IMG/VR virus record: IMGVR_UViG_3300045988_155525
Source of the DNA: a virus
Reading direction: 5' to 3' (one strand)
Length of the DNA stretch: 64,000 nt
Shown here piece by piece: positions 4,826 through 55,999 of the stretch (its first letter is position 1; each line of letters begins with the position of its first letter). The notes under the pieces are model-generated. The model was not told the DNA's origin. It worked only from the letters and a program-made list of their open reading frames with translations, and ran no database searches. Both the position numbers and the translations under genes were made by a program.

Positions 4826-5398
4826 ATGGCTTCAGAAATACAACAAGATAGTAAACCAATATTACAGGATGGTACGGGTACTCCCTATTTGGCCATATTT
4901 GATGGTAGTGGTAATGCTATTATTGACCCATTGAGTAATTTACCCATTGGAGTTTTTTGTACTGATTTCGAATATTCTTATGATGAAGATAAAGAGGATA
5001 CTGGGTATATTATATTAGAAACTAATAACCCAGATTTAATCTCAATCCCACAACTAAGGTATCAGATGCCCATTAAATTACAGTGGGGATGGATATATCC
5101 TTCAGAAAAACCTAAATGTGGTCAAGTAAGAACGGTAATAATAATAGGTCATGAGGTAGAATTTCAACAAGAAGGTACTCATATTACTATAAACTTTGCT
5201 GATTCTTCAATTTTATTGAAGAATACTCCATCATCTTATTACCCTCAATCAGATGGGTTTTTTGATTATGTAAAAAACTTGTTAAATGGTAGTCCAGTTG
5301 GTGTGCAATTAGTAGATTATAATCCTTCTGCTACTGTTGCTGAAAAGGTTATTGCAAAAAGAGTGATAAAAAGTGAGGATTTGCAAAGATTAAAATAA
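4826..5398 (+). CDS. Hypothetical baseplate-module protein
   Basis: 190-aa ORF, 3-nt spacing from neighbours in the baseplate block. Confidence 0.6.
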   Translation: MASEIQQDSKPILQDGTGTPYLAIFDGSGNAIIDPLSNLPIGVFCTDFEYSYDEDKEDTGYIILETNNPDLISIPQLRYQMPIKLQWGWIYPSEKPKCGQVRTVIIIGHEVEFQQEGTHITINFADSSILLKNTPSSYYPQSDGFFDYVKNLLNGSPVGVQLVDYNPSATVAEKVIAKRVIKSEDLQRLK

Positions 5399-13260: not shown

Positions 13261-13290
13261 TTTGTTTATGCAAATATATAAATATTATCT
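13261..13290 (-). promoter_or_regulatory. Conserved phage promoter copy (minus strand)
   Basis: The reverse complement reads AGATAATATTTATATATTTGCATAAACAAA. The -7 box TATATTTG lies at 13271-13278, about 35 nt upstream of the minus-strand ATG. Confidence 0.6.
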
Positions 13291-16864: not shown

Positions 16865-18341
16865 GAATGCTAATCAATGTGAAGTTGATGGGCCATTAAA
16901 AGTAGTCCATAAACTGTATAATGAGTTTAAGATAAAACATCCAAATGCTTGGCATATACAAATGTATCAAAGGGGTAATAATAAATGGGATGGTTATATA
17001 AAGTACATAAATGATTATGGTATATTTAGGATTGGATTATTACCTAAAGTATATGAAACTTTAATATCCTGGGGTGAAGAAGTTAAAATAATTGATAGAA
17101 GACCTAAATTGAGTATAGAGCCAAATATACCTAAATCTCTTGGTTCTATAGATTTATACCCAAGACAGATTGAAGCCTTGAATAATTTATTGAATAATAA
17201 AGTTGGAGGTACCCCATTTTTAATATGTGTAGGAGATTACGCAGTAGGTTTTGGTAAATCTTTACTATTCTGTGCTATCCATGAATCATTTCATAGACAA
17301 ATTCCAACTATATTGTTATTAAACGATTCTGATTTATTTGACCAGTTTAAAAGAGAGATTCCACCATTACTACCCAATGAGAATATTGCTTTCATAAGAG
17401 GAGGTAAAGTATCTAGTTGGGGTAATTTTAATGTAGCTATGGTTCAATCTGTATCTCAGAATTTAAATAAGTATGCCTATGAGTTAAGTAAAATTGGTAT
17501 AGTTTTAATTGATGAAGCCGATATTATAGATAATAAAACTTATAAATCAGTAATAGAACACTTATATAATACCAAGGTAAGAATAGGATTAAGTGGTACC
17601 ATATATATGGATAATTCCAAGAAAAATATGGTACATAATATGAATATAATGCAGTTTATAGGCAATAAAGTAGACCAAGTAAAGTTATCAGACCAGATAA
17701 AAAATAAGAAAGCTACCCCTGTAGTAGTAAAGATGGTTGTTTCTCATATAGAACCTAAAAAGAAAGTAACTACATATTTAGAAGAATATGAGAGTATTAT
17801 TAGTAATAATATTGAAGCGTATAAGATTAGTTTTACTAGGACACAATATAATATTAAGTATGGTAGACTTCCAGCATTAATTGTTACTAAGCATATAAAT
17901 CATTGTGAAAACCTTTATAAATATTATAAAGAAAGGAGTGATGAATTGGGACTGGGATTTAGTATAGCTTATGTACATCATAAAACACCTAATAGAGAAA
18001 AAATATTAAATGATTTTAGAAATGGTAATATAGATATACTTATATCCACAACCATAATTTCTAGAGGGAAGAATTTCCCAGATTTAAGATATCTACAAAA
18101 TACTGCTTGTATGGATTCCAATGAAAAATCTATACAAATATTGGGTAGGTTAGTAAGACAATCTTCATCTAAAAACAAAGCTTATCTTGACGATATAGTA
18201 TTCCCAGGTCACTATTTATTAAGACATAGCAAACATAGAAAGATATACTATCAAAGAGAGAATCTAAAGGTTATTTTAGTTGATGGTATAAAGAATAGGA
18301 AAACTAAGTCATTTAATAAAGTAGAAAGCCATGAAAAATAA
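16845..18341 (+). CDS. Superfamily 2 DNA helicase (DEAD/DEAH-like, ResIII + helicase C)
   Basis: Walker A GFGKSLL, Walker B LIDEAD, LSGT motif III, and the C-terminal ISRGKNFPD...ILGRLVRQ helicase motifs. Confidence 0.75.
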   Translation: MMIITIKNANQCEVDGPLKVVHKLYNEFKIKHPNAWHIQMYQRGNNKWDGYIKYINDYGIFRIGLLPKVYETLISWGEEVKIIDRRPKLSIEPNIPKSLGSIDLYPRQIEALNNLLNNKVGGTPFLICVGDYAVGFGKSLLFCAIHESFHRQIPTILLLNDSDLFDQFKREIPPLLPNENIAFIRGGKVSSWGNFNVAMVQSVSQNLNKYAYELSKIGIVLIDEADIIDNKTYKSVIEHLYNTKVRIGLSGTIYMDNSKKNMVHNMNIMQFIGNKVDQVKLSDQIKNKKATPVVVKMVVSHIEPKKKVTTYLEEYESIISNNIEAYKISFTRTQYNIKYGRLPALIVTKHINHCENLYKYYKERSDELGLGFSIAYVHHKTPNREKILNDFRNGNIDILISTTIISRGKNFPDLRYLQNTACMDSNEKSIQILGRLVRQSSSKNKAYLDDIVFPGHYLLRHSKHRKIYYQRENLKVILVDGIKNRKTKSFNKVESHEK

Positions 18342-18498
18342 AAGGGTTAAAAAATCAGACAATAAGGAGAAGATGTTTAAACAAGGGAAATCTAATGCTT
18401 GGCATTATACCGATAGGTACTTTGACCCAGAAGATTATAAAGAATTTGAGGAAAAGTATGGGGTACTAAGTCATTTCTCACTTCCTTTAAAAAAGTAA
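18331..18498 (+). CDS. Small hypothetical protein (55 aa)
   Basis: The ATG overlaps the helicase stop (ATGAAAAATAA). Sequence MKNKRVKKSDNKEKMFKQGK...SLPLKK. It is below the ORF-track cutoff. Confidence 0.25.
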   Translation: MKNKRVKKSDNKEKMFKQGKSNAWHYTDRYFDPEDYKEFEEKYGVLSHFSLPLKK

Positions 18499-18975: not shown

Positions 18976-19497
18976 ATGTCAAATTTATTATTTACAAAAG
19001 TAAGGAATGTTAAGGCTCCAGAAAGAGCCCATATAGAGGATGCTGGTATAGATTTTTTTGTACCAGAATTTGATTATAACTTTCTTAAGGATTTTGAAAA
19101 TAAGAACAGATTAACTACTAAATCGGGTATTATAAATTCTACTGAGATTTTGGTAGCTCCCCATGATAGAGTATTGATACCTAGTGGTATAAGGGTAATA
19201 CTACATCCAGGTTCGGCTTTAGTTGCCTTAAATAAATCTGGGGTAGCCACTAAAAAGGGTTTGTTGGTAACTGCACAGTTAATAGACCCACAATATACTG
19301 GGGAAGTACATATAGGGGTATATAACTCAGGTGATGATAGTCAGATTATAAATTGTGGAGAAAAATTAGTACAGTTTATCCATATACCAATTTTTAGTTC
19401 AATACCCGAAGAGTTAGGTTTTGAAATATATGAACAATATATTTCAAAAATGGGTTCGGATAGAGGAGATAATGGGTTTGGTTCAACTAATAAATAA
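18976..19497 (+). CDS. dut: Trimeric dUTP diphosphatase
   Basis: AGIDFFVP, SGIRV, LIDPQYTGEVHIGVYN and the C-terminal RGDNGFGSTNK match dUTPase motifs 1-5. Confidence 0.85.
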   Translation: MSNLLFTKVRNVKAPERAHIEDAGIDFFVPEFDYNFLKDFENKNRLTTKSGIINSTEILVAPHDRVLIPSGIRVILHPGSALVALNKSGVATKKGLLVTAQLIDPQYTGEVHIGVYNSGDDSQIINCGEKLVQFIHIPIFSSIPEELGFEIYEQYISKMGSDRGDNGFGSTNK

Positions 19498-19507
19498 AGT
19501 ATAACAT

Positions 19508-20446
19508 ATGGATTCTAGAGATATAAAAGAGGAACCTAAACCAATTGCTGATTCCAAATATTTAGAAACTTTATATGGTTTACAAAAAGAACTTTTGGAT
19601 AATTATATAAAGATTGAGGGGTTACCCATGTATCCATTGGATATAAATACCAAAAAGTCTCAAATAATATTAAAGGATTTTGTGGGTAGGGTAATTGAGG
19701 AATTAGCTGAAGGTTATGAATCCCTATTAGCCGTAGATGAGTTAACTCAAAAAAATGAGTTATGGGTAAATGAGATAAATGAAGTAGATTATATACAGAC
19801 TTTAAATCATTTACAGAATGCAGGTGAAGAGATTGCTGATTCTCTTCATTTTATGTTAGAGTTACTGATATACTCTAATATCCAACCTAAGGACATAGAT
19901 GATTTCATAGAAAAATACATTAAATATCAACACCACCCTATTACTACTAATGGTAGTGAAGTAAAAGAGTATTGGTATCAACTTTCAGAACAAAATATCT
20001 TAAGGAAGGCTATAGTAGTTGGTACCAATATGATGTATGATAAGTTACCCATAGACTTAGAAAGTAACTTAAAGAAAACAGTAGATTTGGTACAAGATAT
20101 AATTGATGATTATGAGGATTCCTATGAATTTATACATAAGCATGTATTAGATATAAGGTATCTAAGTTGCGGTAGATATTATAGTCATGAGTTATATTAC
20201 TCCTATAAGTATATGTTATGGGAAGTAACATATTGGTTGAATATAGCTAGGAACTTCTTAAAAAATAAGCCATGGAAACAATCTCAAATGATGACTAATG
20301 AATCTGGATATCAAGAAGCTATAATTATGGCCTTCTTAAGTATGATGGGATTATTCTTTAATTTAGGCTTAGTAGATTCTGATATATATTTCTTGTATTG
20401 GAAGAAAAATAAGGTAAATCAGTTCAGGATAAAATCTAATTATTAA
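19508..20446 (+). CDS. All-alpha NTP pyrophosphohydrolase-like protein (MazG / dimeric dUTPase-dCTPase superfamily), putative
   Basis: 312 aa. VIEELAEGYE and NAGEEIADSLHFMLELLIYS resemble the metal-binding EExxE / ExxD helices of this superfamily. The C-terminal KKNKVNQFRIKSNY resembles dimeric dUTPase C-termini. Confidence 0.4.
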   Translation: MDSRDIKEEPKPIADSKYLETLYGLQKELLDNYIKIEGLPMYPLDINTKKSQIILKDFVGRVIEELAEGYESLLAVDELTQKNELWVNEINEVDYIQTLNHLQNAGEEIADSLHFMLELLIYSNIQPKDIDDFIEKYIKYQHHPITTNGSEVKEYWYQLSEQNILRKAIVVGTNMMYDKLPIDLESNLKKTVDLVQDIIDDYEDSYEFIHKHVLDIRYLSCGRYYSHELYYSYKYMLWEVTYWLNIARNFLKNKPWKQSQMMTNESGYQEAIIMAFLSMMGLFFNLGLVDSDIYFLYWKKNKVNQFRIKSNY

Positions 20447-20452
20447 TAGGTG

Positions 20453-21418
20453 ATGGAGCAGTATTTAAATTTATTAGATAAGGTAACTAACCATGGTTAT
20501 TATAAACCTTCTGCCAGGAAAGGTATGCCAGGTACTTATGAAGTATTTGGTGAAATGTTAAGGTTTGATTTAACTGAAAATTTCCCCATATTAACAACTA
20601 AAAAAGTATACTTTAAAGGAGTAGTAGCTGAGTTACTTTGGTTTTTAAAGGGTAAAACTAATATCCATTACCTTTTAAAAAATAATGTACACATATGGGA
20701 TGATGATGCCTATAAATATTATCTAAGGTTATGTAAATACCGAGGTATAGAAGAAGAATATTCTAAAGAAAGGTTTATTAAGATGATAGAATCCTGTGAT
20801 ATTTGTATAACAGGATTAACAGGATTAGAAACTAATATACCATTAATTGATGGTTCTTTTTACCATTATGGGGATTTAGGTTTTTCATATGGGCATCAAT
20901 GGACTTATTGGGAACATAGCTTAAATCAGTTAGAACAGTTAATAGATGGTCTTATCGAAAGACCTAATTCTAGGTATCATGTAGTAACAGCTTGGAACCC
21001 TAATCAAATATTTCCCCTAGAAGTAGCAGTACCCCCATGTCATATACTATTCCAATGTAATGTACGTAATAATAAGTATTTGGACTTAATAGTAACTCAA
21101 CGTTCCTGTGATATATTTTTAGGGCTTCCATTTAATATATCCTCTTATGCTTTATTAAACCATCTTATTTGTAGGCTTACTGGATATGAGCCAGGGGAAT
21201 TAATATGGGTGGGTAACTCCATACATTTATATGAGAATCATATAGAGGCTGCAAAAGAGCAACTAAAAAGGAAACCACTTAATAATACGGCTATAGTTAA
21301 ACTTAAAGAAGAAACCTGTAAATACAAAAATTTATGGGATTTTGAAGTAAGTGATATCATACTAGAAGGATACCAATCCTTAGAATCAATTAAAGCTCCT
21401 TTATCGGTGGGTATTTAA
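20453..21418 (+). CDS. thyA: Thymidylate synthase ThyA (with a ~45-aa insert after the WDDDA segment)
   Basis: Co-linear with E. coli ThyA: [45 protein letters not shown], the catalytic PPCH, [21 protein letters not shown] and NSIHLYENH. The Asn equivalent to E. coli N177 is retained. Confidence 0.85.
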   Translation: [321 protein letters not shown]

Positions 21419-21424
21419 TAAGGT

Positions 21425-22186
21425 ATGAGAAAGAAGATTTTTAATGATTCCTTAGAAGCCTGGGAGAAAATAAATGAGGCTTTTATAAAAGGAGAAAAAG
21501 GTTGGGATATTATTATAAAAAATAAGGCTCTGTATTTATATGATTTAGTAATTGAGGTAGCTAATCCAAGGCTACCTCAAAATTTTGATTTTGGAAGACA
21601 TTTTAACTATACCATATCCAAATGGAATAATCTAATAGGTAATTATATTAATAAACCAGATTTACAAAAAGTAAAATCCTGGGTATCTAAAGAAGAAGAG
21701 AAAAATAATAAGGTATATAATATACCATTATCATTTGATAATAAACATGGTCATGGTAAGAGTTGTTTATTATCTATGGTATTTTCTAGAAGAATGGGTG
21801 ATGTATTACCTTCAGTAGTGGTATTTTTGAGAGCTTCTGAAATTACTAAAAGATTGATATGTGACTTATTATTATTTCAAAGGGTAGGTGAATATATTTA
21901 TGGAGAAGATGATTTTAAATTAGTTATCCATTTCAACCAGGTATTTAATGATGATACTGTATTATTAATGTATGATGTACATCGTGATATCAAGAGTATA
22001 TTGGGTTCAGTAACTAACAGTGATAGAAAAAGGTATCTATTAGAAAGGTTAGAATATTTAAAGAGTTGTAATCCAGATGATATTAAGTATAAGGTACATA
22101 AAAGAGCTCTTAAAGTATTGAGACCAGATTTATTTAAATACCCAAAGACACTAGTTAGAGATTGTAAGTTACATATTACAGAATAG
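21425..22186 (+). CDS. Hypothetical protein, possibly a highly divergent ThyA-fold paralog
   Basis: 253 aa. GKSCLLSMVF...VVVFLRASEITKRLICDLLLF keeps the ThyA spacing Cys-x22-R-[AS]-S-[DE]-x7-D. Weak, by-eye alignment only. Confidence 0.3.
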   Translation: MRKKIFNDSLEAWEKINEAFIKGEKGWDIIIKNKALYLYDLVIEVANPRLPQNFDFGRHFNYTISKWNNLIGNYINKPDLQKVKSWVSKEEEKNNKVYNIPLSFDNKHGHGKSCLLSMVFSRRMGDVLPSVVVFLRASEITKRLICDLLLFQRVGEYIYGEDDFKLVIHFNQVFNDDTVLLMYDVHRDIKSILGSVTNSDRKRYLLERLEYLKSCNPDDIKYKVHKRALKVLRPDLFKYPKTLVRDCKLHITE

Positions 22187-22234
22187 ATAAATATACTAAC
22201 TTTTTTTTATTAAAACCATTAAACATTTAAAAAC

Positions 22235-23023
22235 ATGAGGATTTATTCAAATGGGTATGAGTTAATATCCGAAACTGGTCGTAATTTATGGGAAATGGGT
22301 TCCGAAGTAAAGCCAAAAACTTATCAAAATAAAGTTATAGCTGGTAATGATGATTTTATTACTAAAGAACTTATTTGTGAACAATATTGTTTAACAAAAT
22401 TGGAAGATGAAGATATCTTATTTGTATTTACAAATTGTAAAGATTGGGCTATAGCTGAATTTAAAGAAAGGATTGATTCCAGGAGAATTAACCCTGGTGA
22501 GGCTTATAAATTGAGGTGGGAAATTTGGAATGATTTTTTGACCAATATAGATACTCATGAAATAGGTAGTGATGTATATAGTGTACCTAAATTTGATTAT
22601 ACATATTCCGAAAGGATTAATACAGAAGTAGATTACAAGGGATTAAAGTATCCTAAATTAGAAGCTATAATTAGGTTGTTAGAAGAAGACCCAGATACTA
22701 GGAAAGCAGTATTGAATATATTTGGAACTATAGATTCTAACTATTATGATGGTTATCATAGGATACCATGTTCTATGTATTATGATTTTCTAATCAGAGA
22801 GAACCCAAGAGGAGAAAAGCAATTGAACTTATGTTATCATCAAAGGAGTTCTGATTTTATAACTCATTTTGGAAATGATGTATGGTTAGCTTGGCAATTA
22901 AAGGATTATGTTGCAAATAGGTTAGGAATTAAGCCTGGGTACTTATACCATACTATTGATTCTTTACATGTGTACAAAAAGGATTGGGTGAAATTAAAAA
23001 CTTCCCTCAATAGTATGGTATAA
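22235..23023 (+). CDS. ThyA-family pyrimidine nucleotide C5-transferase paralog (dCMP hydroxymethylase/methylase-like)
   Basis: DPDTRKAVLNIF (cf. DSRRIIVSAWN), RIPCSMYYDF (catalytic Cys), HQRSSDFITHFGNDVWLAWQL (cf. [20 protein letters not shown]) and DSLHVYKKD (cf. DTHLYSNH). Asp replaces the uracil-reading Asn. Confidence 0.55.
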   Translation: MRIYSNGYELISETGRNLWEMGSEVKPKTYQNKVIAGNDDFITKELICEQYCLTKLEDEDILFVFTNCKDWAIAEFKERIDSRRINPGEAYKLRWEIWNDFLTNIDTHEIGSDVYSVPKFDYTYSERINTEVDYKGLKYPKLEAIIRLLEEDPDTRKAVLNIFGTIDSNYYDGYHRIPCSMYYDFLIRENPRGEKQLNLCYHQRSSDFITHFGNDVWLAWQLKDYVANRLGIKPGYLYHTIDSLHVYKKDWVKLKTSLNSMV

Positions 23024-35221: not shown

Positions 35222-35250
35222 GAATTATTAATATATTTGCAATGTAAACA
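35222..35250 (+). promoter_or_regulatory. Conserved phage promoter copy, variant B
   Basis: GAATTATTAATATATTTGCAATGTAAACA with the -7 box TATATTTG at 35232-35239. A (TA)n tract follows before the ATG at 35287. Confidence 0.6.
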
Positions 35251-44482: not shown

Positions 44483-44518
44483 AGGTACCTTAAAAAACGA
44501 GACTCTTTTAAGGTACCT
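44483..44518. promoter_or_regulatory. GGTACC-core hairpin a
   Basis: AGGTACCTTAAAA (44483-44495) pairs with TTTTAAGGTACCT (44506-44518), a 13-bp stem with a 10-nt loop. Each arm contains the palindrome AGGTACCT. Confidence 0.6.
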
Positions 44519-47778: not shown

Positions 47779-47823
47779 TCTTAAAGAACCACCAAACATA
47801 AAAAAACCAAATAAAAAATAATA

Positions 47824-47853
47824 AAGGTACCTAATATACTAAATAGGTACCTT
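47824..47853. promoter_or_regulatory. GGTACC-core hairpin b (terminator-like when read on the minus strand)
   Basis: AAGGTACCTA (47824-47833) pairs with TAGGTACCTT (47844-47853) around a 10-nt loop. An A/T-rich tract on the left becomes a U-rich tail for minus-strand transcripts. Confidence 0.55.
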
Positions 47854-48059
47854 AAATTTGTGATAATAAATATAAAGTATATAAATATAGGATTAATATA
47901 AAGAGGGGATAAAGGATAGGATATTATATAATAAGGATAAAAGGTAAAAAATCAGTTTTTTATATTTCATTCATTTTTAAGACCTTGATACCTAAAAATT
48001 AGGGGTTGCAATTTTGATAAATTCTTGTTTTTTACAAGGTTTTTATATTGTTTTTATAT

Positions 48060-48235
48060 TGAAGTTAGATGTCAGAGCCTCCGGAAAAACACCGGGGAGG
48101 TTTCGGATTAATAGGGGGGTAACTATGTTCGTACACTATAGCCACATAGCTAGAAAGCTCATCTGTTGACTTTTTAAGGCCCTCCATCCGACAGCCTTTT
48201 TGGCCATCCTGGCTCAATAAAATCTTCTAGGATTA
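48060..48235. ncRNA. GC-rich island, candidate structured RNA or protein-binding locus (strand unresolved)
   Basis: A patch of locally much higher G+C inside ORF-free AT-rich DNA. It shows hairpin CCTCCGG/CCGGGGAGG, long-range TCGGAT/ATCCGA plus GGGGGG/CCCTCC, and CTATG/CATAG. No ORF longer than 17 codons. Confidence 0.3.
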
Positions 48236-48466
48236 TACTTATCAAATTTTAAAAAGTATCAACAAACCATATATAACATATATCTAACTTATACTTTTCT
48301 CATTTCCTAGAGATTACTAAGTTATCGCCCCTCTTAATTATACTAAAACTTAAAAATAATCTCTAGAAGGCATATTTAAATAACCCAATTTTTAGGCCTA
48401 TTTTAATCAAAAAACCTAAAAATAAACCTAAAGAAAAAAGATAGGAAAAAATCCTCGGTACCTAAA

Positions 48467-49312
48467 CCTTACTTTATATTTATTATATATATATATAAGT
48501 AATATATTGAAAAAATTTAGGTATTCAAATATACTCATTTGTTGGGTGGTTTTTCAAAATAGGAGTATTTTTCTTATAGTATATATTATATATAATATAA
48601 ATGAAATTTTTGAAGGTATGGTTTTATTAGTAGTTTTGAGTATGTTTTACATTTTGGGTATTTTTGTTTTAGTATATATTATATAAGAATTGGGAGAATT
48701 TTTGAAACTTGAGTGACTTTAAGTATATTTTTAAGAGTTGGCTTTTTATAGATTTTAGTATTCCCTATATATTATATATAATAGGGTAGGTTGGCTTTTG
48801 GGGTTGGTATATTAGGTACCTTTATTATTTTAGGTTTCATGTTCCTTGGTTATTTTTTGTTTTTAGTAAATACCTAAGCCTTAGTACATTAGTACTCTAT
48901 ATCAATTATTATAAAGGCCTAAAGTCCTAAAGACCGATTAGGCTTAATATCTCCAAGGCCTATTAGGATATTCCTACCTTACCTTTACTTTATATTTATT
49001 ATATATATATAATAAGGACTAAAAAAATTCTAAACTCTAAAAACCCAGCTACAATTGGAGTTTTCAAAAATGGCCTTATATAGGCCTATATAGAATATAT
49101 TATATATAGGTATATAATTTATCTTACCTTTAATTCTACTCTCTTATATAAATACCCATATATTAATCTTTATATACCTTTATACCCATATCCTTATATT
49201 ATTATATTTAGTGAATATCCCATACTTCAAGGATTATCAAAAAAAACCTGGCTACAATATGAGTTGGTTTTTTGAGCCTTATGTAGGCCGATATGGAATA
49301 TATTATAAAGGG
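48467..49312. repeat. Degenerate ~92-bp periodic repeat array with AT-palindrome cores
   Basis: TATATATTATATA-like cores lie near 48490, 48585, 48678, 48772, 49008, 49100 and 49300. Units 48511-48600 and 48601-48690 share GTATTTTT(C/G)TT(A/T)TAGTATATATTATATA. A ~31-nt repeat CCTT(T)ACTTTATATTTATTATATATATATA occurs at 48467-48497 and 48982-49012. A ~70-nt repeat occurs at ~49045-49112 and ~49245-49312. Confidence 0.75.
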
Positions 49313-49410
49313 GTATGTAATAAAAACTCTATAAATTTAATTTATCCGAACCTTTATGGTTTATAAAAAAATGCAATATCGAAAATCTCAAAAAAATTTG
49401 CAGGGGAGCA

Positions 49411-49443
49411 ATATTATTTATATATTTGCATAAACAAAAGGGA
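49411..49443 (+). promoter_or_regulatory. Conserved phage promoter copy, variant A
   Basis: ATATTATTTATATATTTGCATAAACAAAAGGG with the -7 box at 49421-49428. The shared leader runs to ATGGAAA at 49472. Confidence 0.65.
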
Positions 49444-49471
49444 ATTTAATTAATCACTAAAAATTATCACT

Positions 49472-49690
49472 ATGGAAAACAAAAACATTTTTAAAAAACT
49501 TTTTGATTACATATATATGGGAAAGGACAATATTTTTAAAAAAATATGTCGCTATATATATTGGATTGGTCTTTGTATAAAACATTACACAAAGAAATTC
49601 TTTATTTATTGGATACCAAATATTTTTCATTTAAAAAGGGCATGGAAAAATAATTGGATATTTGATGCCGAAAATGATTTTATTCGGTAA
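49472..49690 (+). CDS. Hypothetical small protein
   Basis: 72-aa ORF bracketed by a promoter copy and a terminator. Confidence 0.6.
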   Translation: MENKNIFKKLFDYIYMGKDNIFKKICRYIYWIGLCIKHYTKKFFIYWIPNIFHLKRAWKNNWIFDAENDFIR

Positions 49691-49700
49691 AAAAACTATG

Positions 49701-49731
49701 GGGGAGATTCAAAAAAATCTCCCCATTTATT
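49701..49731 (+). terminator. Hairpin terminator
   Basis: GGGGAGATT (49701-49709) pairs with AATCTCCCC (49716-49724), followed by ATTTATTT. Confidence 0.6.
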
Positions 49732-49744
49732 TGCAAATAACTCA

Positions 49745-49775
49745 AATCTCCCTTATATTTGCATAACAAACAAAA
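49745..49775 (+). promoter_or_regulatory. Conserved phage promoter copy (divergent)
   Basis: AATCTCCCTTATATTTGCATAACAAACAAAA with the -7 box at 49754-49761. Confidence 0.5.
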
Positions 49776-49852
49776 AGGAAATAGAAAGGGTTAAAGAAAT
49801 CCATAAAAATCTCCTTCCTATATTCCCTCCTAATAAATAATAAAGGATTTTT

Positions 49853-50299
49853 ATGGTATATGCTATGGAAGAAATGGTTAAGGAAATGGTAAAAACCAAT
49901 GAAGAGGTAAAAACCAATGCAAATGCCAAAAAGGCAAGGACAACTACCAAAAAAACCAATGCCAAACCTTCAGTATCGGATATCCTTAAAATAGGGAATA
50001 CCATTTTAACATCCGAAAAGAATTCCAAACAAGGTATATATAAAAGGGAATTATTCTTGGATTGCAAGGATGATAAAGAAAAGAAAAGTTTACGTATCAA
50101 ACTTAGACGTAAATTGAAAAACTTTTTGGGTGCATTCCTTCAAAATGAAAAGAATCCTGAAAAAATATCCGAAATCAAAAAGGAATGGCAAAACTATGCC
50201 AAACAGGTATATAATAATGTAGAAATTATTATGGATGGTAATACAAGCAATGATAATGCAGAACTTTGCAAAAGGTTTTTGAAGGCAATGAGTAAATAG
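49853..50299 (+). CDS. Hypothetical basic protein
   Basis: 148-aa ORF downstream of a promoter copy and followed by a terminator. The exact start (49853 or 49865) is uncertain. Confidence 0.6.
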   Translation: MVYAMEEMVKEMVKTNEEVKTNANAKKARTTTKKTNAKPSVSDILKIGNTILTSEKNSKQGIYKRELFLDCKDDKEKKSLRIKLRRKLKNFLGAFLQNEKNPEKISEIKKEWQNYAKQVYNNVEIIMDGNTSNDNAELCKRFLKAMSK

Positions 50300-50317
50300 G
50301 TAAGTAAAAGTTAAATA

Positions 50318-50364
50318 ATAGGGGATAGGTCTAGGTTTTAGATTTGTCCCCTATTTTTATTTTG
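50318..50364 (+). terminator. Rho-independent terminator
   Basis: ATAGGGGA (50318-50325) pairs with TCCCCTAT (50347-50354), followed by TTTTTATTTT. Confidence 0.65.
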
Positions 50365-50703
50365 AAAGGTTAAATAAAAGGGGATACCGTTCCCCCCTTT
50401 AAATACGTAGCCTTTTTTATCCCTAAGGGAGCCCCCTTTTTTTCCTTATATATCCTTTTTTTATAATTCCTATTAATCCTATCCTTATCTTTTTTAGTTC
50501 CCTTATTAAAAATCCTTCTTCTTATCATTGGGTAGTGATTTTTTTTAATTTATAGGATTAACCTATTGAAGAGTATATTATAATAATCCTTATCCTTTTT
50601 TTATAAGGTAATTTATATTGTACTTTTATTATTGAATAAATACCTCTTTTTATATATTTATTTTATTTGGTTTTTTTTGTGTTTGGGGTGGGTATGGGTA
50701 TAC

Positions 50704-50743
50704 ACAAAAAAATAGGTACCGAATTTCTCAATCAGGTACCTAT
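50704..50743 (-). terminator. GGTACC-core hairpin c, minus-strand rho-independent terminator
   Basis: ATAGGTACC (50712-50720) pairs with GGTACCTAT (50735-50743). On the minus strand a T7 run follows directly (plus-strand A7 at 50705-50711), downstream of the minus-strand gene cassette. Confidence 0.7.
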
Positions 50744-50822
50744 CCAAACTCATAAATTTTAAATCACTAATGCTATGGAACAAAGGATTGTTGTTACATA
50801 TCCAAAGTAAAATAGTTGAATA

Positions 50823-51601: not shown

Positions 51602-52612
51602 ATGAAGACAAAATTGAGTGTATTAGGAGTATGTGGAGCTCAAGGAGCTTTATTATTCCCCTTTAGGAAACAATTGTTGGCTAATATTGAGCCAAGACCC
51701 ATTTTTCATACTAAAAATGAAGAACAATGGAAGCTTAATTTTAAAGATATTCCATTTTTAAGGAGTTTAGAACAGTATAATGGTCCTAATCCTGACATAA
51801 TTTTGGGTTCTCCCTCCTGTGGACATAGTAGTGTATTCAGTTATTCAAGGAAAAAGAGGTTAGGAAACCCAAAAGAAGATAAAACCCTGAATTTGTTTGT
51901 GGAATCCATCCTAAAATTTAAGCCCAAAGTGTTTTTATTAGAGAATTTACCCAAATTAATGGATGTTATACCTCAAAAAGATTGGGAAAAAACCTTACCT
52001 GGTTATAATATAATTACACATTGCCATTCGGTAATAGATTTTGGTAACTCCCAAAAATCAAGAAAAAGATTAATTTTAATAGGGGCCAGAATTAATTCTA
52101 GAATATCAATAGAGAATTTTTTAAATATATTCCAAGTAACTACTCCACGATTAGTTTCTGAAATTCTAGAAAAGGTTAGAAATGATTATAATTTTAGAGA
52201 AGAACCAAATAAAGTTCTTAGTATGTATCATTATGCTGATAAAAGTAAGACTAACTTATCAGTTGAACAAGTTCAAAATTTATGGAATACAGAATTTAAA
52301 AATGAGTATAGGTGGCCAATGAAAAATCATAAGATGGTAACCTTACCAGGAGTATATAGAAATCAACTTAATAGTTACCCTTTAACCATAAGACCTGCTA
52401 ATAGGCAATTTAATCCAGATGGTTCAATCATAGGTTTAGAGGACACTAGAATTATAATGGGTTTCCCTAAAAAATTTAAAGTGTATTTTGACCCAAATAA
52501 TAGGACCTATTGGTTAAATAAAGGAAGAAATACTTTGGCAAAAGGTTCGGTATATGAGGTAGGGGTTTGGTTTAAAAAATGCCTTAGGATGGCAACCAAA
52601 ACTAGGGCCTAG
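51602..52612 (+). CDS. DNA cytosine-C5 methyltransferase-like protein (divergent motif IV)
   Basis: Motif I-like LGVCGAQG, motif IV-like GSPSCGHSS (canonical GPPCQ), motif VI FLLENLPKL and motif VIII-like NSQKSRKRLILIG. Confidence 0.55.
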   Translation: MKTKLSVLGVCGAQGALLFPFRKQLLANIEPRPIFHTKNEEQWKLNFKDIPFLRSLEQYNGPNPDIILGSPSCGHSSVFSYSRKKRLGNPKEDKTLNLFVESILKFKPKVFLLENLPKLMDVIPQKDWEKTLPGYNIITHCHSVIDFGNSQKSRKRLILIGARINSRISIENFLNIFQVTTPRLVSEILEKVRNDYNFREEPNKVLSMYHYADKSKTNLSVEQVQNLWNTEFKNEYRWPMKNHKMVTLPGVYRNQLNSYPLTIRPANRQFNPDGSIIGLEDTRIIMGFPKKFKVYFDPNNRTYWLNKGRNTLAKGSVYEVGVWFKKCLRMATKTRA

Positions 52613-52712
52613 AATCAATAAAAATACATAGTTATATATATTATAATATATATAAAAAAAATTCACCAAATCCTAATCAAGTATATATACTATGTATATA
52701 TAAAAAGTTCCC

Positions 52713-52724
52713 CGCGTATACGCG
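52713..52724. other. GC-rich perfect palindrome CGCGTATACGCG within alternating Pu/Py tract
   Basis: A 12-bp perfect palindrome. With the flanking CG it forms 14 nt of strictly alternating pyrimidine-purine. AT palindromes precede it, for example the 22-nt TATATATATTATAATATATATA near 52634-52657. Confidence 0.9.
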
Positions 52725-52728
52725 CGCC

Positions 52729-52781
52729 AAATTACTTATTTCCCCATAAAGGAAAAATAAGTAATTTCCTTTTATGGGAGG
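52729..52781. other. Interleaved inverted repeats A-B-A'-B'
   Basis: A = AAATTACTTATTT (52729-52741) pairs perfectly with A' = AAATAAGTAATTT (52755-52767). B = CCCATAAAGG (52743-52752) pairs with B' = CCTTTTATGGG (52768-52778) with one bulge. Confidence 0.85.
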
Positions 52782-52813
52782 AAAATAATAACAAATAAAG
52801 AAAGAAAAAAACT

Positions 52814-53503: not shown

Positions 53504-55999
53504 ATGCCAAGAAAGGATAAGATAAAAGAACAGAAATATCTTAATCAGGAACAACTAAAGACTTTAGCAAAGGTAAGTAAAGATGTATTTTTCTTTTCTA
53601 CCTTTTGTTATGTTGTAAATCCTGTAACTGGTATGGTTAAATTTGATTTATACCCATATCAAAAATCAGTATTGTATCAGTTTTTGAAAGAGAGGTTCAA
53701 TATAATCCTTAAGTTCAGACAAGCTGGTATAACTGAATTGATTGCTATGTATTGTTTATGGTTAACCATGTATCACCCAAATAAAAAGGTTAACATTATT
53801 TCAATCAAGGATACAGTAGCAAAGAAAGTTCTTAAAAAAATCAAGTTCATGTATAAAAATCTACCTTGGTATTTACAAACACCAATTACCAATGGTAGAT
53901 TTGGAGAATATGGTTCAGCATCTACAATTGAATTTTCAAATGGGTCAATAATAGAATCCATACCTACCTCTGACCAAGCTGGTCGTTCTGAATCTCTTTC
54001 TTTATTGGTTATTGATGAAGCAGCTATAGTTAGGTGGGCTTCTACTATATGGGCTTCTGCATTCCCAACCCTTTCAACTGGTGGTTCAGCTATTGTAAAT
54101 TCTTGTATCACTGGAGATACTCAGATAATCGGCAAAGATGGTTCCTTTAGGGTTGATTCTATATGTCCAAAGACTTTTGGTAAGATGGACATATCTCATC
54201 TTGGGCTAAAAGTATTATCACATACAGGTAAGTGGCAGAGAGTACTTGGTTCCGTAAATAAAGGTGTACTGAAAACTTGGGAAGTTCATAATGAACAAGG
54301 TAAAGTTATTAAGTGTACTCCAAAACATAAGCTATATACCATAGAGGGTTGGTTACCTGTTTCAGAAATAATCAAACGAGATATACCAGCTATATTTTAT
54401 CATACTGGTATAGGTGACCTGGAGCAGAATCCAGTAACTATAAAACCCAAGAAAGAAATATGTAAACCTATACCAGGCTATCCAAACTATGAAGTATCCA
54501 ACTGGGGGAGAATATTCATTATAAAAAATGGGACAAGGATAGAGAAGCTACCAAGACCATGTTCAGGTAGGGAACGATATCTTAATATTCAGCTTTGGAA
54601 TCAAGGTCAAAAGAAAAAGATATGTGTCCACAATTTGGTGGCTAAAGTATTCTTAGGAGAAATTCCAGAAGGGTATGTAGTTGACCACATTAACAACAAT
54701 CCTTCTGATAACTATGTAACCAACTTACAGATAGTTACAGTAGCTGAGAATGGTAAAAAAGCTGCAAAACATTCTTATGGAATGAGGCTTGGGTCTAAAT
54801 TGAAAGGTGGATTCAACTACGATTTAAGAGTGGTAGCTTACATAAGATATCGTTATCAGGAACTTGGTTACTATTATGGAGTATTAGAGAAGATATCCCA
54901 GGAGGTTGAGAATAAGTTCGGAGTTAAGCTGAGTAAACCTTATATTCAATGTGTTGTATCTGGTAAACGTGGTACTAGTATATACCTTTCTAAGCTAAAA
55001 GTAGTTAGGGAGTATTATGATACCATTTATGATATTTGTGTTGAAAATGATGAATCTTACCTCATAAATGAAGACTATGTGTCTCATAACACGCCTTACG
55101 GTATAGGTAATTTCTTTCATGGTACTTGGGTAGATGCTTTATCTGGTGGTAACCCATTTAACCCAATAAGGTTATATTGGCAAATGCACCCAGAAAGAGA
55201 TGAAAAATGGTATCTAGAAATGTCAAGTGCTCTTGGTCCTAAAAGAACTGCACAAGAAATAGATGGTGACTTTTTATCTTCAGGTAATACAGTATTTGAT
55301 TTAGTTGATATAAAAGCCATAGAAGATACTCTTAGTGAATATACTCCAATTAAAACTAGGTTAGGAGGACAATACCGAGAATTTAACGAACCAATAGATG
55401 GTACAGATTACTATATAGGAGCAGACTGTGCAACTGGTAGAGGTACAGACTACTCCTCTTTTACTTGTATGGATTCCAAAGGAGAAGAACAAGTAATATA
55501 CAAAGGTAAGATACCACTAAACCAGTATGCTAAACTTCTAGGAGATACTGGAGAAAAGTTTAATTTTGCCAAAATTGCTCCAGAAACCAATGATATTGGT
55601 ATGGCAGTAACTTTACAACTTCAAGATGAAGGTTATCCTAACTTATACTTCTCTACAAAACTTCTGAAAAATAAAAAAGGAGGTAGACCAGAAGAAGAAA
55701 AAGTACCTGGATGGTTAACTACTCAGAAAAATAGGAGCCTAATTATTGAAAGCTTAGAGAAAGACATAAGAGAAGATTTGTTAATAATCAAAGACCCATT
55801 TTTTGTACAAGAAGCCTATACATTCATATATGATGGTTTAGGTAGACCAGTTGCTAGGGGTAAACATAAGTCATTAAATTCTTCAATTGATATAGATTTA
55901 GAAGCTCAGGCTTATTCTGATGATGATATATTTGGCAAAGCTATATGTAACCATATAAGAAAATCCCCCAGAAATGATACCATTGTTTTACCTCTGTAA
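53504..55999 (+). CDS. Terminase large subunit, interrupted by an intein
   Basis: The N-extein has KFRQAGITE and a Walker B LLVIDEAA. The junction SAIVNS|C...HN|TPYGIGNFFHG restores a conserved terminase S-TP-G-N-F segment. The C-extein is nuclease-like. The mature protein would be ~502 aa. Confidence 0.8.
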   Translation: MPRKDKIKEQKYLNQEQLKTLAKVSKDVFFFSTFCYVVNPVTGMVKFDLYPYQKSVLYQFLKERFNIILKFRQAGITELIAMYCLWLTMYHPNKKVNIISIKDTVAKKVLKKIKFMYKNLPWYLQTPITNGRFGEYGSASTIEFSNGSIIESIPTSDQAGRSESLSLLVIDEAAIVRWASTIWASAFPTLSTGGSAIVNSCITGDTQIIGKDGSFRVDSICPKTFGKMDISHLGLKVLSHTGKWQRVLGSVNKGVLKTWEVHNEQGKVIKCTPKHKLYTIEGWLPVSEIIKRDIPAIFYHTGIGDLEQNPVTIKPKKEICKPIPGYPNYEVSNWGRIFIIKNGTRIEKLPRPCSGRERYLNIQLWNQGQKKKICVHNLVAKVFLGEIPEGYVVDHINNNPSDNYVTNLQIVTVAENGKKAAKHSYGMRLGSKLKGGFNYDLRVVAYIRYRYQELGYYYGVLEKISQEVENKFGVKLSKPYIQCVVSGKRGTSIYLSKLKVVREYYDTIYDICVENDESYLINEDYVSHNTPYGIGNFFHGTWVDALSGGNPFNPIRLYWQMHPERDEKWYLEMSSALGPKRTAQEIDGDFLSSGNTVFDLVDIKAIEDTLSEYTPIKTRLGGQYREFNEPIDGTDYYIGADCATGRGTDYSSFTCMDSKGEEQVIYKGKIPLNQYAKLLGDTGEKFNFAKIAPETNDIGMAVTLQLQDEGYPNLYFSTKLLKNKKGGRPEEEKVPGWLTTQKNRSLIIESLEKDIREDLLIIKDPFFVQEAYTFIYDGLGRPVARGKHKSLNSSIDIDLEAQAYSDDDIFGKAICNHIRKSPRNDTIVLPL
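54104..55090 (+). mobile_element. Intein (329 aa) carrying an HNH-type (NUMOD4 + HNH_3-like) homing endonuclease
   Basis: Block A CITGDTQIIGKDG (Cys1 at 54104), block B CTPKHKLYT, and blocks F/G IYDICVENDESYLINEDYVSHN followed by Thr+1 (55091). The insert has YPNYEVSNWGRIF and HNLVAKVFLGEIPEGYVVDHINNNPSDNYVTNLQ. Confidence 0.8.

Follow-up and report, generated by a model that had tools for sequence, protein, structure and literature searches.

The DNA analyzed here, a stretch of 64,000 nucleotides (the window) from IMG/VR virus record IMGVR_UViG_3300045988_155525, belongs to an uncultured Bacteroides-type gut phage, a Flandersviridae-like myovirus of Bacteroidota with a genome of 71.7 kb. Its only large non-coding block, the region at 47780–49470, is free of open reading frames (ORFs) of at least 60 amino acids in all frames (47444/47779–49471). 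Reading TAG, TGA or TAA as sense reveals no long ORF (TAA occurs 18–34 times per frame), and the claim of the initial annotation that the region is ORF-free thus holds under each stop-codon reassignment. Smaller ORFs are unconvincing as genes, one candidate peptide being interrupted by a stop codon in three strains, and the region encodes no tRNA or tmRNA. The last upstream ORF (47485–47775/47778, 97 codons) has none of the start codons ATG, GTG and TTG in the window. Where L083 has ATG, and L084 and L087 have ACG, the window and most strains read ATA (L numbers denote comparison contigs or loci; the strains of the same phage include L081–L091). The ATA is either a non-canonical start or the mark of a gene undergoing loss, and coding sequence in the window may thus end as early as 47443. 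The 1.6-kb stretch without genes is a real, organized and non-random control region. In this respect the initial description was largely right, and junk is very unlikely.

Bacteroides promoters consist of TTG (TTTG), an AT-rich spacer of 19–21 nt and TAnnTTTG (PMC12068327). A search of both strands of the window with the σA consensus in its full form (TTTG-N18–21-TAnnTTTG) returned six perfect matches, five of which are located within 48526–49761. Shuffled sequence is expected to yield 2.25 matches in the whole window, 0.04 in 47780–49800 and 0.04 in 48440–48900, where three are observed. These three are orphans, with no downstream gene for 0.7–0.8 kb. One is on the minus strand (48526–48558, TTTG-N21-TATATTTG), with a predicted leftward start at ~48519, and two overlap on the plus strand within the second unit of the repeat array described below (48609–48638, TTTG-N18-TAGTTTTG; 48635–48666, TTTG-N20-TATTTTTG, −7 box at 48659–48666). 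A near-consensus promoter (9/10) is found in the third unit, also on the plus strand (48701–48731). The other two perfect matches are plus-strand early cassette promoters for ORF72 (promoter 49397–49428; ORF 49472–49690) and for the family-conserved ORF148 (promoter 49730–49761; ORF 49853–50299), the latter gene being followed by a strong terminator (50317–50355, −23.5 kcal/mol). Bacteroidota-type σA promoters with an AT-rich spacer of 18–21 nt are therefore present at five sites in the region and its flank, and the four on the plus strand form a tandem cluster upstream of ORF72 and ORF148, a clustering repeated in 38 relatives. All three orphans are retained in all strains and are identical in L091, the most divergent strain. 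An E. coli-type σ70 scan was uninformative as a guide (34 sites vs 31 expected). The protein-binding array proposed initially is plausible, but the protein indicated is host RNA polymerase with σA, given five perfect promoters against 0.04 expected. Since these perfect host promoters have no gene to read, they most likely recruit host RNA polymerase and make non-coding early RNA.

The promoters belong to a wider set of early signals. The early promoter cassette TATATTTGCAWWR occurs in nine exact copies that precede small ORFs, one on the minus strand at 13266 and the others on the plus strand at 35232, 39704, 42250, 42799, 45847, 47018, 49421 and 49754; several run into a conserved leader of 40–60 nt (CATAAACAAAAGGGAATTTAATTAATCACTAAA). 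A number of contigs of the phage have their break points inside the block containing these repeats. Judging from the host-type promoters and the small size of the ORFs, the genes driven by these cassettes are probably early. As the cassettes span 13.3–49.8 kb, the ORF-free stretch lies inside the early block, and its placement between the early cassettes and the packaging genes was only roughly right.

The orphan plus-strand promoters are embedded in an array of four tandem units of ~93–96 bp (48497–48874, plus strand), each closing with GGGTATTTTTGTTTTAGTA and an AT core. The exact 13-mer core TATATATTATATA is found at 48580, 48673 and 48766, with spacings of 93 and 93 bp, and the predicted start of the 48635 promoter falls in the second of these cores (48673–48685). 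The units are 65–80% alike in pairs, with a mean column identity of 66% and conservation mostly in the last ~30 nt; the homology noted previously between adjacent units extends over 41 nt at 80% identity. Autocorrelation at a lag of 93 was compared with 500 dinucleotide shuffles, giving z = 4.92 for 48440–48800 (shuffle maximum of 3.97) and a borderline z = 3.65 for the whole of 47780–49470 (95% threshold of 3.48). Related AT cores are present at 48477–48497, 48993–49014, 49094–49108 and 49297–49308; with spacings of 227, 101 and 203 bp, those farther right are out of phase. Thus, the AT cores do recur as initially described, but a period of ~92 bp or its small multiples applies to the central array (four units, 93 bp) and not to the full 1.6 kb. 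A CRISPR or CRISPR-mimic array was considered and rejected (repeat portions 80% alike, period of 93 bp, only 3–4 units).

An iteron origin, one of the functions suggested initially, is disfavored by this arrangement. Instead of three or more near-identical repeats of 17–22 bp, the units are 93 bp long and 65–80% alike, and the 13-nt AT core, at 93-bp spacing, is the sole word that recurs exactly. No DnaA box (TTATCCACA within one mismatch) occurs in 47780–49470, the total for the window being 30 versus 28.3 expected. No initiator gene (Rep or O-like) emerged when the flanking and replication genes were scanned with Pfam and PHROG, although the small neighboring ORFs may include a novel type.

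Several other repeated elements reported initially were recovered. The 31-nt block seen at two sites is a plus-strand 37-nt repeat (48459–48495 and 48975–49011, 92% identical), and the ~70-nt block resolves into 24-nt and 46-nt blocks (49039/49242 and 49073/49276) that are 83–85% identical and 203 bp apart. These make up two plus-strand modules of the same architecture (49039–49118 and 49242–49321), consisting of GCTACAAT, ~20 nt, a GGCC(T)...(A)GGCC hairpin and an AT core. All four AGGCCTA words of the 64-kb window fall in the region, two of them as the palindrome TAGGCCTA (48393 and 49081), and the minimum of six TACCTAA/TTAGGTA words reported initially corresponds to four TACCTAA (14 in the window) and two TTAGGTA (16 in the window). 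An 8-bp tandem repeat, TAAAGNCC, with 2.6 copies on the plus strand (48912–48932), contains AGGCCTA words. Compared to the rest of the window, GGCC is 10-fold and GGTACCT[AT] 27-fold enriched. The nearby C5-methyltransferase (51602–52612), considered for GGCC specificity, has no relative in PDB by sequence.

Part of this vocabulary is shared with relatives whose blocks do not align. GGCC is enriched 4–12-fold in the homologous blocks of L017, L050, L005 and L092, whereas CCGG and GCGC are not. An element consisting of CTACAAT, ~20 nt and a short GC hairpin, present twice in the window, is also found in L005–L007 and L093 and is kept in three lineages. Such words could be sites for a sequence-specific phage or host DNA-binding protein, the region then being an iteron-type origin, an operator or silencer array for the early-to-late switch, or a nucleoprotein scaffold; the candidate sites would be AGGCCTA/GGCC, GGTACCTAA and the AT 13-mer. 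The confinement of AGGCCTA to the region, the GGCC enrichment here and in relatives, the GGTACCTA words found also in the L017 clade and the CTACAAT-hairpin element are consistent with such an array, and words conserved without order would be typical of site clusters. We nevertheless consider it unlikely, since the GGCC contexts share no longer motif, three of the GGTACC pairs are mere hairpin stems (see below), initiator gene and DnaA boxes are absent as described above, and no candidate binding protein was found. ORF148 was examined for this role and rejected: its AlphaFold model is confident over residues 60–148 (predicted local distance difference test score ~90) with a three-helix C-terminal half, but it has no Foldseek match in PDB.

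Both edges of the putative leftward transcription unit can be described. A GGTACC hairpin (AGGTACCTA-N10-TAGGTACCT, 47824–47853) has a terminator-like structure on both strands (−13.0 kcal/mol and z −3.4 on the plus strand, −13.4 kcal/mol and z −3.7 on the minus strand). Its tail is a T-run on the minus strand (UUUAUUAUUUUUUAUUU, 47823–47808) and is U-poor on the plus strand. The hairpin is predicted to be a weak stop for the upstream plus-strand operon and a strong stop for leftward transcription. Pairs of AGGTACCT form hairpins of 10–13 bp at three sites, all intergenic (44483–44518, 47824–47853 and 50714–50741; −13 to −16.6 kcal/mol). The last of these closes a real, convergent operon on the minus strand, and its U-run is on that strand too, the same polarity as the 47.8-kb hairpin; by analogy with this sister hairpin, a leftward transcript of ~670 nt would stop at 47.8 kb. 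The 50714–50741 terminator is located in a second ORF-free stretch of 470 bp (50300–50770), together with the ORF148 terminator and a second terminator-like hairpin at 50425. Weak, sub-threshold Rfam matches to GibS and FopS (25 and 22 bits, far below gathering) occur at 50.6–50.8 kb, on the terminator hairpin.

The left arm of the 47.8-kb terminator is also part of a 28-nt inverted repeat which, like the promoters, was absent from the initial annotation. Its arms (47815–47842 and 48804–48831) are complementary at 27 of 28 positions and separated by 961 nt. The right arm, an inverted copy of the terminator's left arm, forms only a weak hairpin on the plus strand (−4.3 kcal/mol, z 0.27), followed by a T-run. 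As the repeat flanks the three orphan promoters, its recombination could flip the 961-bp segment that carries them, as in an inverton. In L085 the left arm has the right-arm variant, suggesting exchange between arms, and L097 (ENA UBIJ01001155) begins 8 nt past the repeat, these 8 nt resembling the interior end on the right (6/8) in a junction with the outer flank on the left. However, the L097 evidence amounts to 8 nt in a divergent strain, and among the contigs besides L097, the 15 that cover one or both arms have the orientation of the window, as do three contigs examined in follow-up. The 64 kb yielded no recombinase, and another way to see the right arm is as the terminator module copied a second time in inverted orientation. 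Thus, an inverton is very unlikely.

The orphan promoters of the two strands are arranged back to back, and no DNA in the window is less stable than that next to them. The least stable 40-bp duplex contains an imperfect (TA)12 tract (48475–48497), which lies just downstream of the minus-strand promoter. When duplex windows of the 64 kb are ranked by stability, five to six of the lowest 15 fall within the region, which makes up 2.6% of the sequence. Base composition switches at ~48480, the plus strand being C/A-rich on the left (GC skew of −0.3 to −0.5) and G/T-rich on the right (+0.4 to +0.77); the two divergent transcripts would accordingly be rich in G and U but poor in C. This arrangement raises the possibility of a transcription-activated (R-loop) origin, in which the divergent promoters would fire into the unstable AT tracts and the G-rich, C-poor transcripts would stay hybridized and prime leading strands in both directions. 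A promoter followed by an unwinding element, the order seen in transcription-primed origins, is present on both sides: the 48659–48666 box precedes the 48673–48685 core and the minus-strand promoter precedes (TA)12, such that an AT core lies a few tens of nucleotides downstream of each orphan promoter. Promoters without a gene to serve, the change of skew sign at 48480, the location in the sole large non-coding block, and a T4-like replisome (DnaB, primase, gp32-like single-stranded DNA-binding protein (SSB), UvsX/RecA, flap endonuclease (FEN), SbcCD and PolA) without a recognizable initiator all agree with this possibility. On the other hand, the argument for initiation is anatomical rather than direct, cumulative GC skew has no turning point beyond a plateau and the genes are all co-oriented, the sequence of the block is unconserved between genera, comparably unstable AT tracts are also present at 35.25 kb and 52.6 kb, and T4-like phages can replicate largely via recombination. 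An R-loop origin is therefore possible, with low confidence on our part, and it is compatible with the promoter-cluster reading developed below. Any origin function here, if it exists, would be of the promoter-plus-unwinding-element kind.

To the left of the composition switch, a GC-rich island (48069–48218) stands out with 48% GC within a region of 27% GC. It is strongly self-complementary and lineage-specific; its fold has z-scores of −2.7 (plus strand) and −1.4 (minus strand), and six of seven strain substitutions fit the plus-strand fold. The island was rejected as a family-wide structured RNA, as a covariance model built on five strain variants finds only itself among 49 relatives. At the gathering score, Rfam 15 identifies only two tRNAs in the window, and no family matches 47780–48900 even at E ≤ 5.

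Comparison of strains reveals a mosaic of constrained and variable parts. Over 11 strains, an invariant block of 150 nt (48250–48400) has no variable site, 47950–48430 is as conserved as coding sequence, and 48500–48700 is a further conserved sub-block; the left and core part of the region is present in every contig that spans it. The rest is less stable. L082, L084 and L089 lack one 203-bp module, and the promoter and ORF72 module is missing in eight of the 15 related contigs covering this point (L081–L084, L087, L090, L091 and L099). The lengths of the (TA)n tracts differ between strains, and module breakpoints lie in repeats. Within the species, modules are lost through recombination at the repeats. 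The region might accordingly be seen as largely functionless debris, made of duplicated, decaying promoter cassettes and remnants of lost early genes in a fast-evolving accessory region. A diversity twice that of the flanking genes, the presence or absence of whole modules with breakpoints in repeats, the ATA/ATG/ACG polymorphism of the last upstream ORF and the absence of sequence conservation between genera would all fit this view. Decay of this kind is at odds with three perfect orphan promoters kept in all strains, with the invariant block and the coding-level conservation of 47950–48430, with a left and core part never lost, and with an ORF-free block of the same compositional signature at this position across the family, and we regard debris as quite unlikely.

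The relatives keep the position, the ORF-free block, the GGCC enrichment and the promoter clustering, but not the sequence. When the region was compared by blastn with more than 80 relatives, only ORF148 and its terminator aligned, and nothing of 47.8–49.4 kb did so outside the species. ORF-free blocks of 0.7–1.8 kb are nevertheless found directly upstream of the ORF148 homologue. In the 38 IMG/VR relatives surveyed for promoter position, the plus-strand consensus promoters form a cluster 7–10 kb ahead of the portal gene; a relative typically has three, two of them ~102 bp apart, and elsewhere just one, before the packaging genes. L092 has back-to-back promoters (minus strand at 5158, plus strand at 5212), with minus-strand terminators in the ORF-free block and at its left edge. 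Most of the 85–88-kb relatives (L012–L080) have two more ORF-free gaps of ~0.8–1.2 kb within the structural module, ~7.5 and 9 kb downstream of the portal gene (locus coordinates ~17514–18366 and 19018–20207); these have no counterpart in the window before its end.

The genomic context identifies the phage and bears on a role in packaging. The long ORFs of the window are on the plus strand, beginning with the tail tube, tape measure, baseplate, DnaB helicase, primase and a helicase, followed by dUTPase-like and thymidylate-synthase-like enzymes, PolA, the gp32-like SSB, a RecA/UvsX-like protein, FEN and SbcCD. About 30 small ORFs without assigned function (35–47.8 kb) lead to the ORF-free stretch. 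Two small ORFs, three minus-strand ORFs, the C5-methyltransferase and a 227-aa ORF lie to its right, and then the large terminase subunit (TerL) with an intein/HNH insert, the portal, the protease and the major capsid protein. This is the order published for the candidate family Flandersviridae, for which CRISPR spacers indicate Bacteroides and Parabacteroides as hosts and whose detection frequency in the human gut is reported to be about that of crAss-like phages (PMC8008677). Shine–Dalgarno-like motifs precede only two of 62 genes, the gene leaders being A-rich; together with the gene order and the Bacteroides-type promoters, this rarity points to a host in the phylum Bacteroidota. Bacterial genomes yielded only mis-binned contigs of metagenome-assembled genomes when searched for the host. 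Portal relatives with 62–71% identity are found at 364 IMG/VR loci, in genomes of ~85–88 kb. By DNA similarity, no close relative was found in IMG/VR, and GenBank phages align at the methyltransferase region only. Near-identical strains are present in many ENA and Logan assemblies, including six contigs of ~71.3–71.7 kb with differing break points.

A genome terminus or packaging site (direct terminal repeat, cos or pac), as suggested initially, would suit a non-coding, repeat-rich stretch ~3.3–5 kb upstream of the putative small terminase gene, and some contigs of relatives end within a few kilobases. It is disfavored by three lines of evidence, and we consider it extremely unlikely. The TerL ATPase is nearest to that of T4 gp17, a headful packaging enzyme (E = 1.7e-15). 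TerL of the family branches beside Ackermannviridae, and the read coverage of the family is even (PMC8008677). Finally, the six ~71.3–71.7-kb contigs, which look circular, break at 37–43 kb or 66 kb in window coordinates, near repeated early cassettes, and never here, and the contig ends of relatives are scattered.

Other features of the genome were also observed. TerL (53504–55999, 831 aa) is split at approximately residues 250–500 by an HNH endonuclease/intein-like insert that matches PHROG HNH families and Pfam HNH_3, NUMOD4 and Intein_splicing. The intergenic stretch before the putative small terminase gene (52613–52813) has a vocabulary like that of the region: a long hairpin, a palindrome (CGCGTATACGCGCG) and DNA that ranks second in the window for low stability (TATATATATTATAATATATATA), while the final part of the methyltransferase gene, immediately upstream, contains a GGCC word. 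The stretch may be a control site of the late or packaging operon. GATC is absent from the 64 kb (~175 copies expected from base composition), with GCGC present in three and TCGA in 22 copies. GATC is also nearly absent from L017, L020 and L050, and L005 and L009 have 55 and 114 copies, respectively, a pattern suggestive of strong avoidance of a restriction site in particular lineages. Two dUTPase-like/dCTP-deaminase-like genes and two genes of the thymidylate-synthase family (one match strong, the other weak and possibly a hydroxymethylase) at 18976–23023 hint at modified pyrimidines in the phage DNA.

Taking these observations together, we propose with moderate confidence that the region is an early promoter cluster for the host polymerase, made of tandem ~93-bp modules and a divergent partner, which produces non-coding early transcripts and reinforces the ORF72 and ORF148 cassettes. 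Each ~93-bp unit would be a host σA promoter module, with a −33 TTTG, a −7 TAnnTTTG and an easily melted AT core at or after the start; two copies are perfect, one is near-perfect and the rest have decayed. On injection, host RNA polymerase would load onto the cluster. The minus-strand promoter would fire into the (TA)12 tract and yield a G/U-rich non-coding RNA of ~670 nt that runs leftward through the invariant block and the GC island and ends at the GGTACC hairpin, before turning antisense to the upstream genes. Rightward transcription, which would meet no good terminator, may cross the other repeat modules on that side and enter the cassettes of ORF72 and ORF148, adding to the output of their own promoters. 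The GGTACC words would be in part terminator stems, and GGCC/AGGCCTA probably represents short binding sites or else small hairpins. The position and the promoter clustering are conserved, and the anatomy and word enrichment are plain from the DNA; from these we infer the firing of the promoters, the transcript ends and an RNA function.

Several findings weigh against this proposal. Every transcript start and end is predicted from sequence, and array units 1 and 4 have no recognizable promoter. The left block folds better than shuffled sequence on both strands alike (z −3.7 and −4.5), so that DNA-level dyad symmetry fits as well as RNA structure. The rightward transcript has no unusual structure (z 0.05 and +1.27), and the GC island is unconserved outside this species. 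The density of segregating sites is 6.7% in the region and 1.5–3.3% in the flanking genes, and much of the region is therefore weakly constrained. Moreover, the CTACAAT-hairpin element and the family-wide GGCC enrichment, two conserved signatures, are outside the account that the promoter cluster provides. More tentatively, the divergent promoters, AT cores and G-rich non-template strands might constitute a bidirectional transcription-primed origin, and/or the ~670-nt leftward transcript might be a new phage early non-coding RNA whose promoter segment flips between the 28-nt inverted repeats.

To our knowledge, no Flandersviridae-like phage has been cultured, and we know of no account of how their infection begins. 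The region offers exact promoters of the host type, which strengthen the case for a Bacteroidota host, as well as a candidate unwinding site and a predicted early non-coding transcript for which both ends are defined. If the orphan promoters are active, a gut phage devotes its strongest polymerase-capturing sequences to non-coding DNA, which would point to an RNA-based or origin function; if the origin reading is true, this would be the first origin defined for these abundant gut phages. In addition, repeat-driven loss of modules between strains bears on the reconstruction of genomes of this group from metagenomes.

Several known systems resemble the region in part. Iteron origins (lambda ori, P1 oriR, RK2/pSC101) share direct repeats beside AT-rich DNA, but iterons are 17–22 bp, near-identical, helically phased and located in or beside the initiator gene, whereas the phage units are 93 bp and 65–80% alike. 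Bacteroides invertons likewise have a near-perfect inverted repeat around σA consensus promoters; their segments measure a few hundred base pairs, compared to 961 bp here, where no recombinase is nearby and only 8 nt point to the reverse orientation. As in the Bacteroides small RNA genes GibS and FopS, an orphan σA promoter and an intrinsic terminator bound a minus-strand non-coding unit, although the predicted phage RNA is ~670 nt long and the region contains no Rfam family. T4 oriF(uvsY) and oriG(34), the T7 primary origin and ColE1 use transcription-primed initiation. The phage resembles the T4 and T7 origins in having promoters directly before exceptionally unstable AT-rich DNA and a T4-like replisome; its promoters are divergent and of the host-type early class, rather than middle-mode or phage-polymerase promoters, no sequence similarity is seen, and origin activity is suggested by analogy. 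The T7 A1, A2 and A3 promoters and the strong early promoters of T5 are consensus host-sigma promoters in a non-coding stretch, which capture host RNA polymerase on entry. The phage cluster differs from these in its Bacteroidota −33/−7 consensus, its orphan promoters (two plus, one minus), its embedding in 93-bp repeats, and its location inside the early block instead of at a genome end. As in T7 and T5, however, several host promoters are packed ~100 bp apart, in the same direction, at the head of early genes, with plus-strand promoters starting at 48609, 48635, 49397 and 49730 in the window and pairs ~102 bp apart in its relatives.

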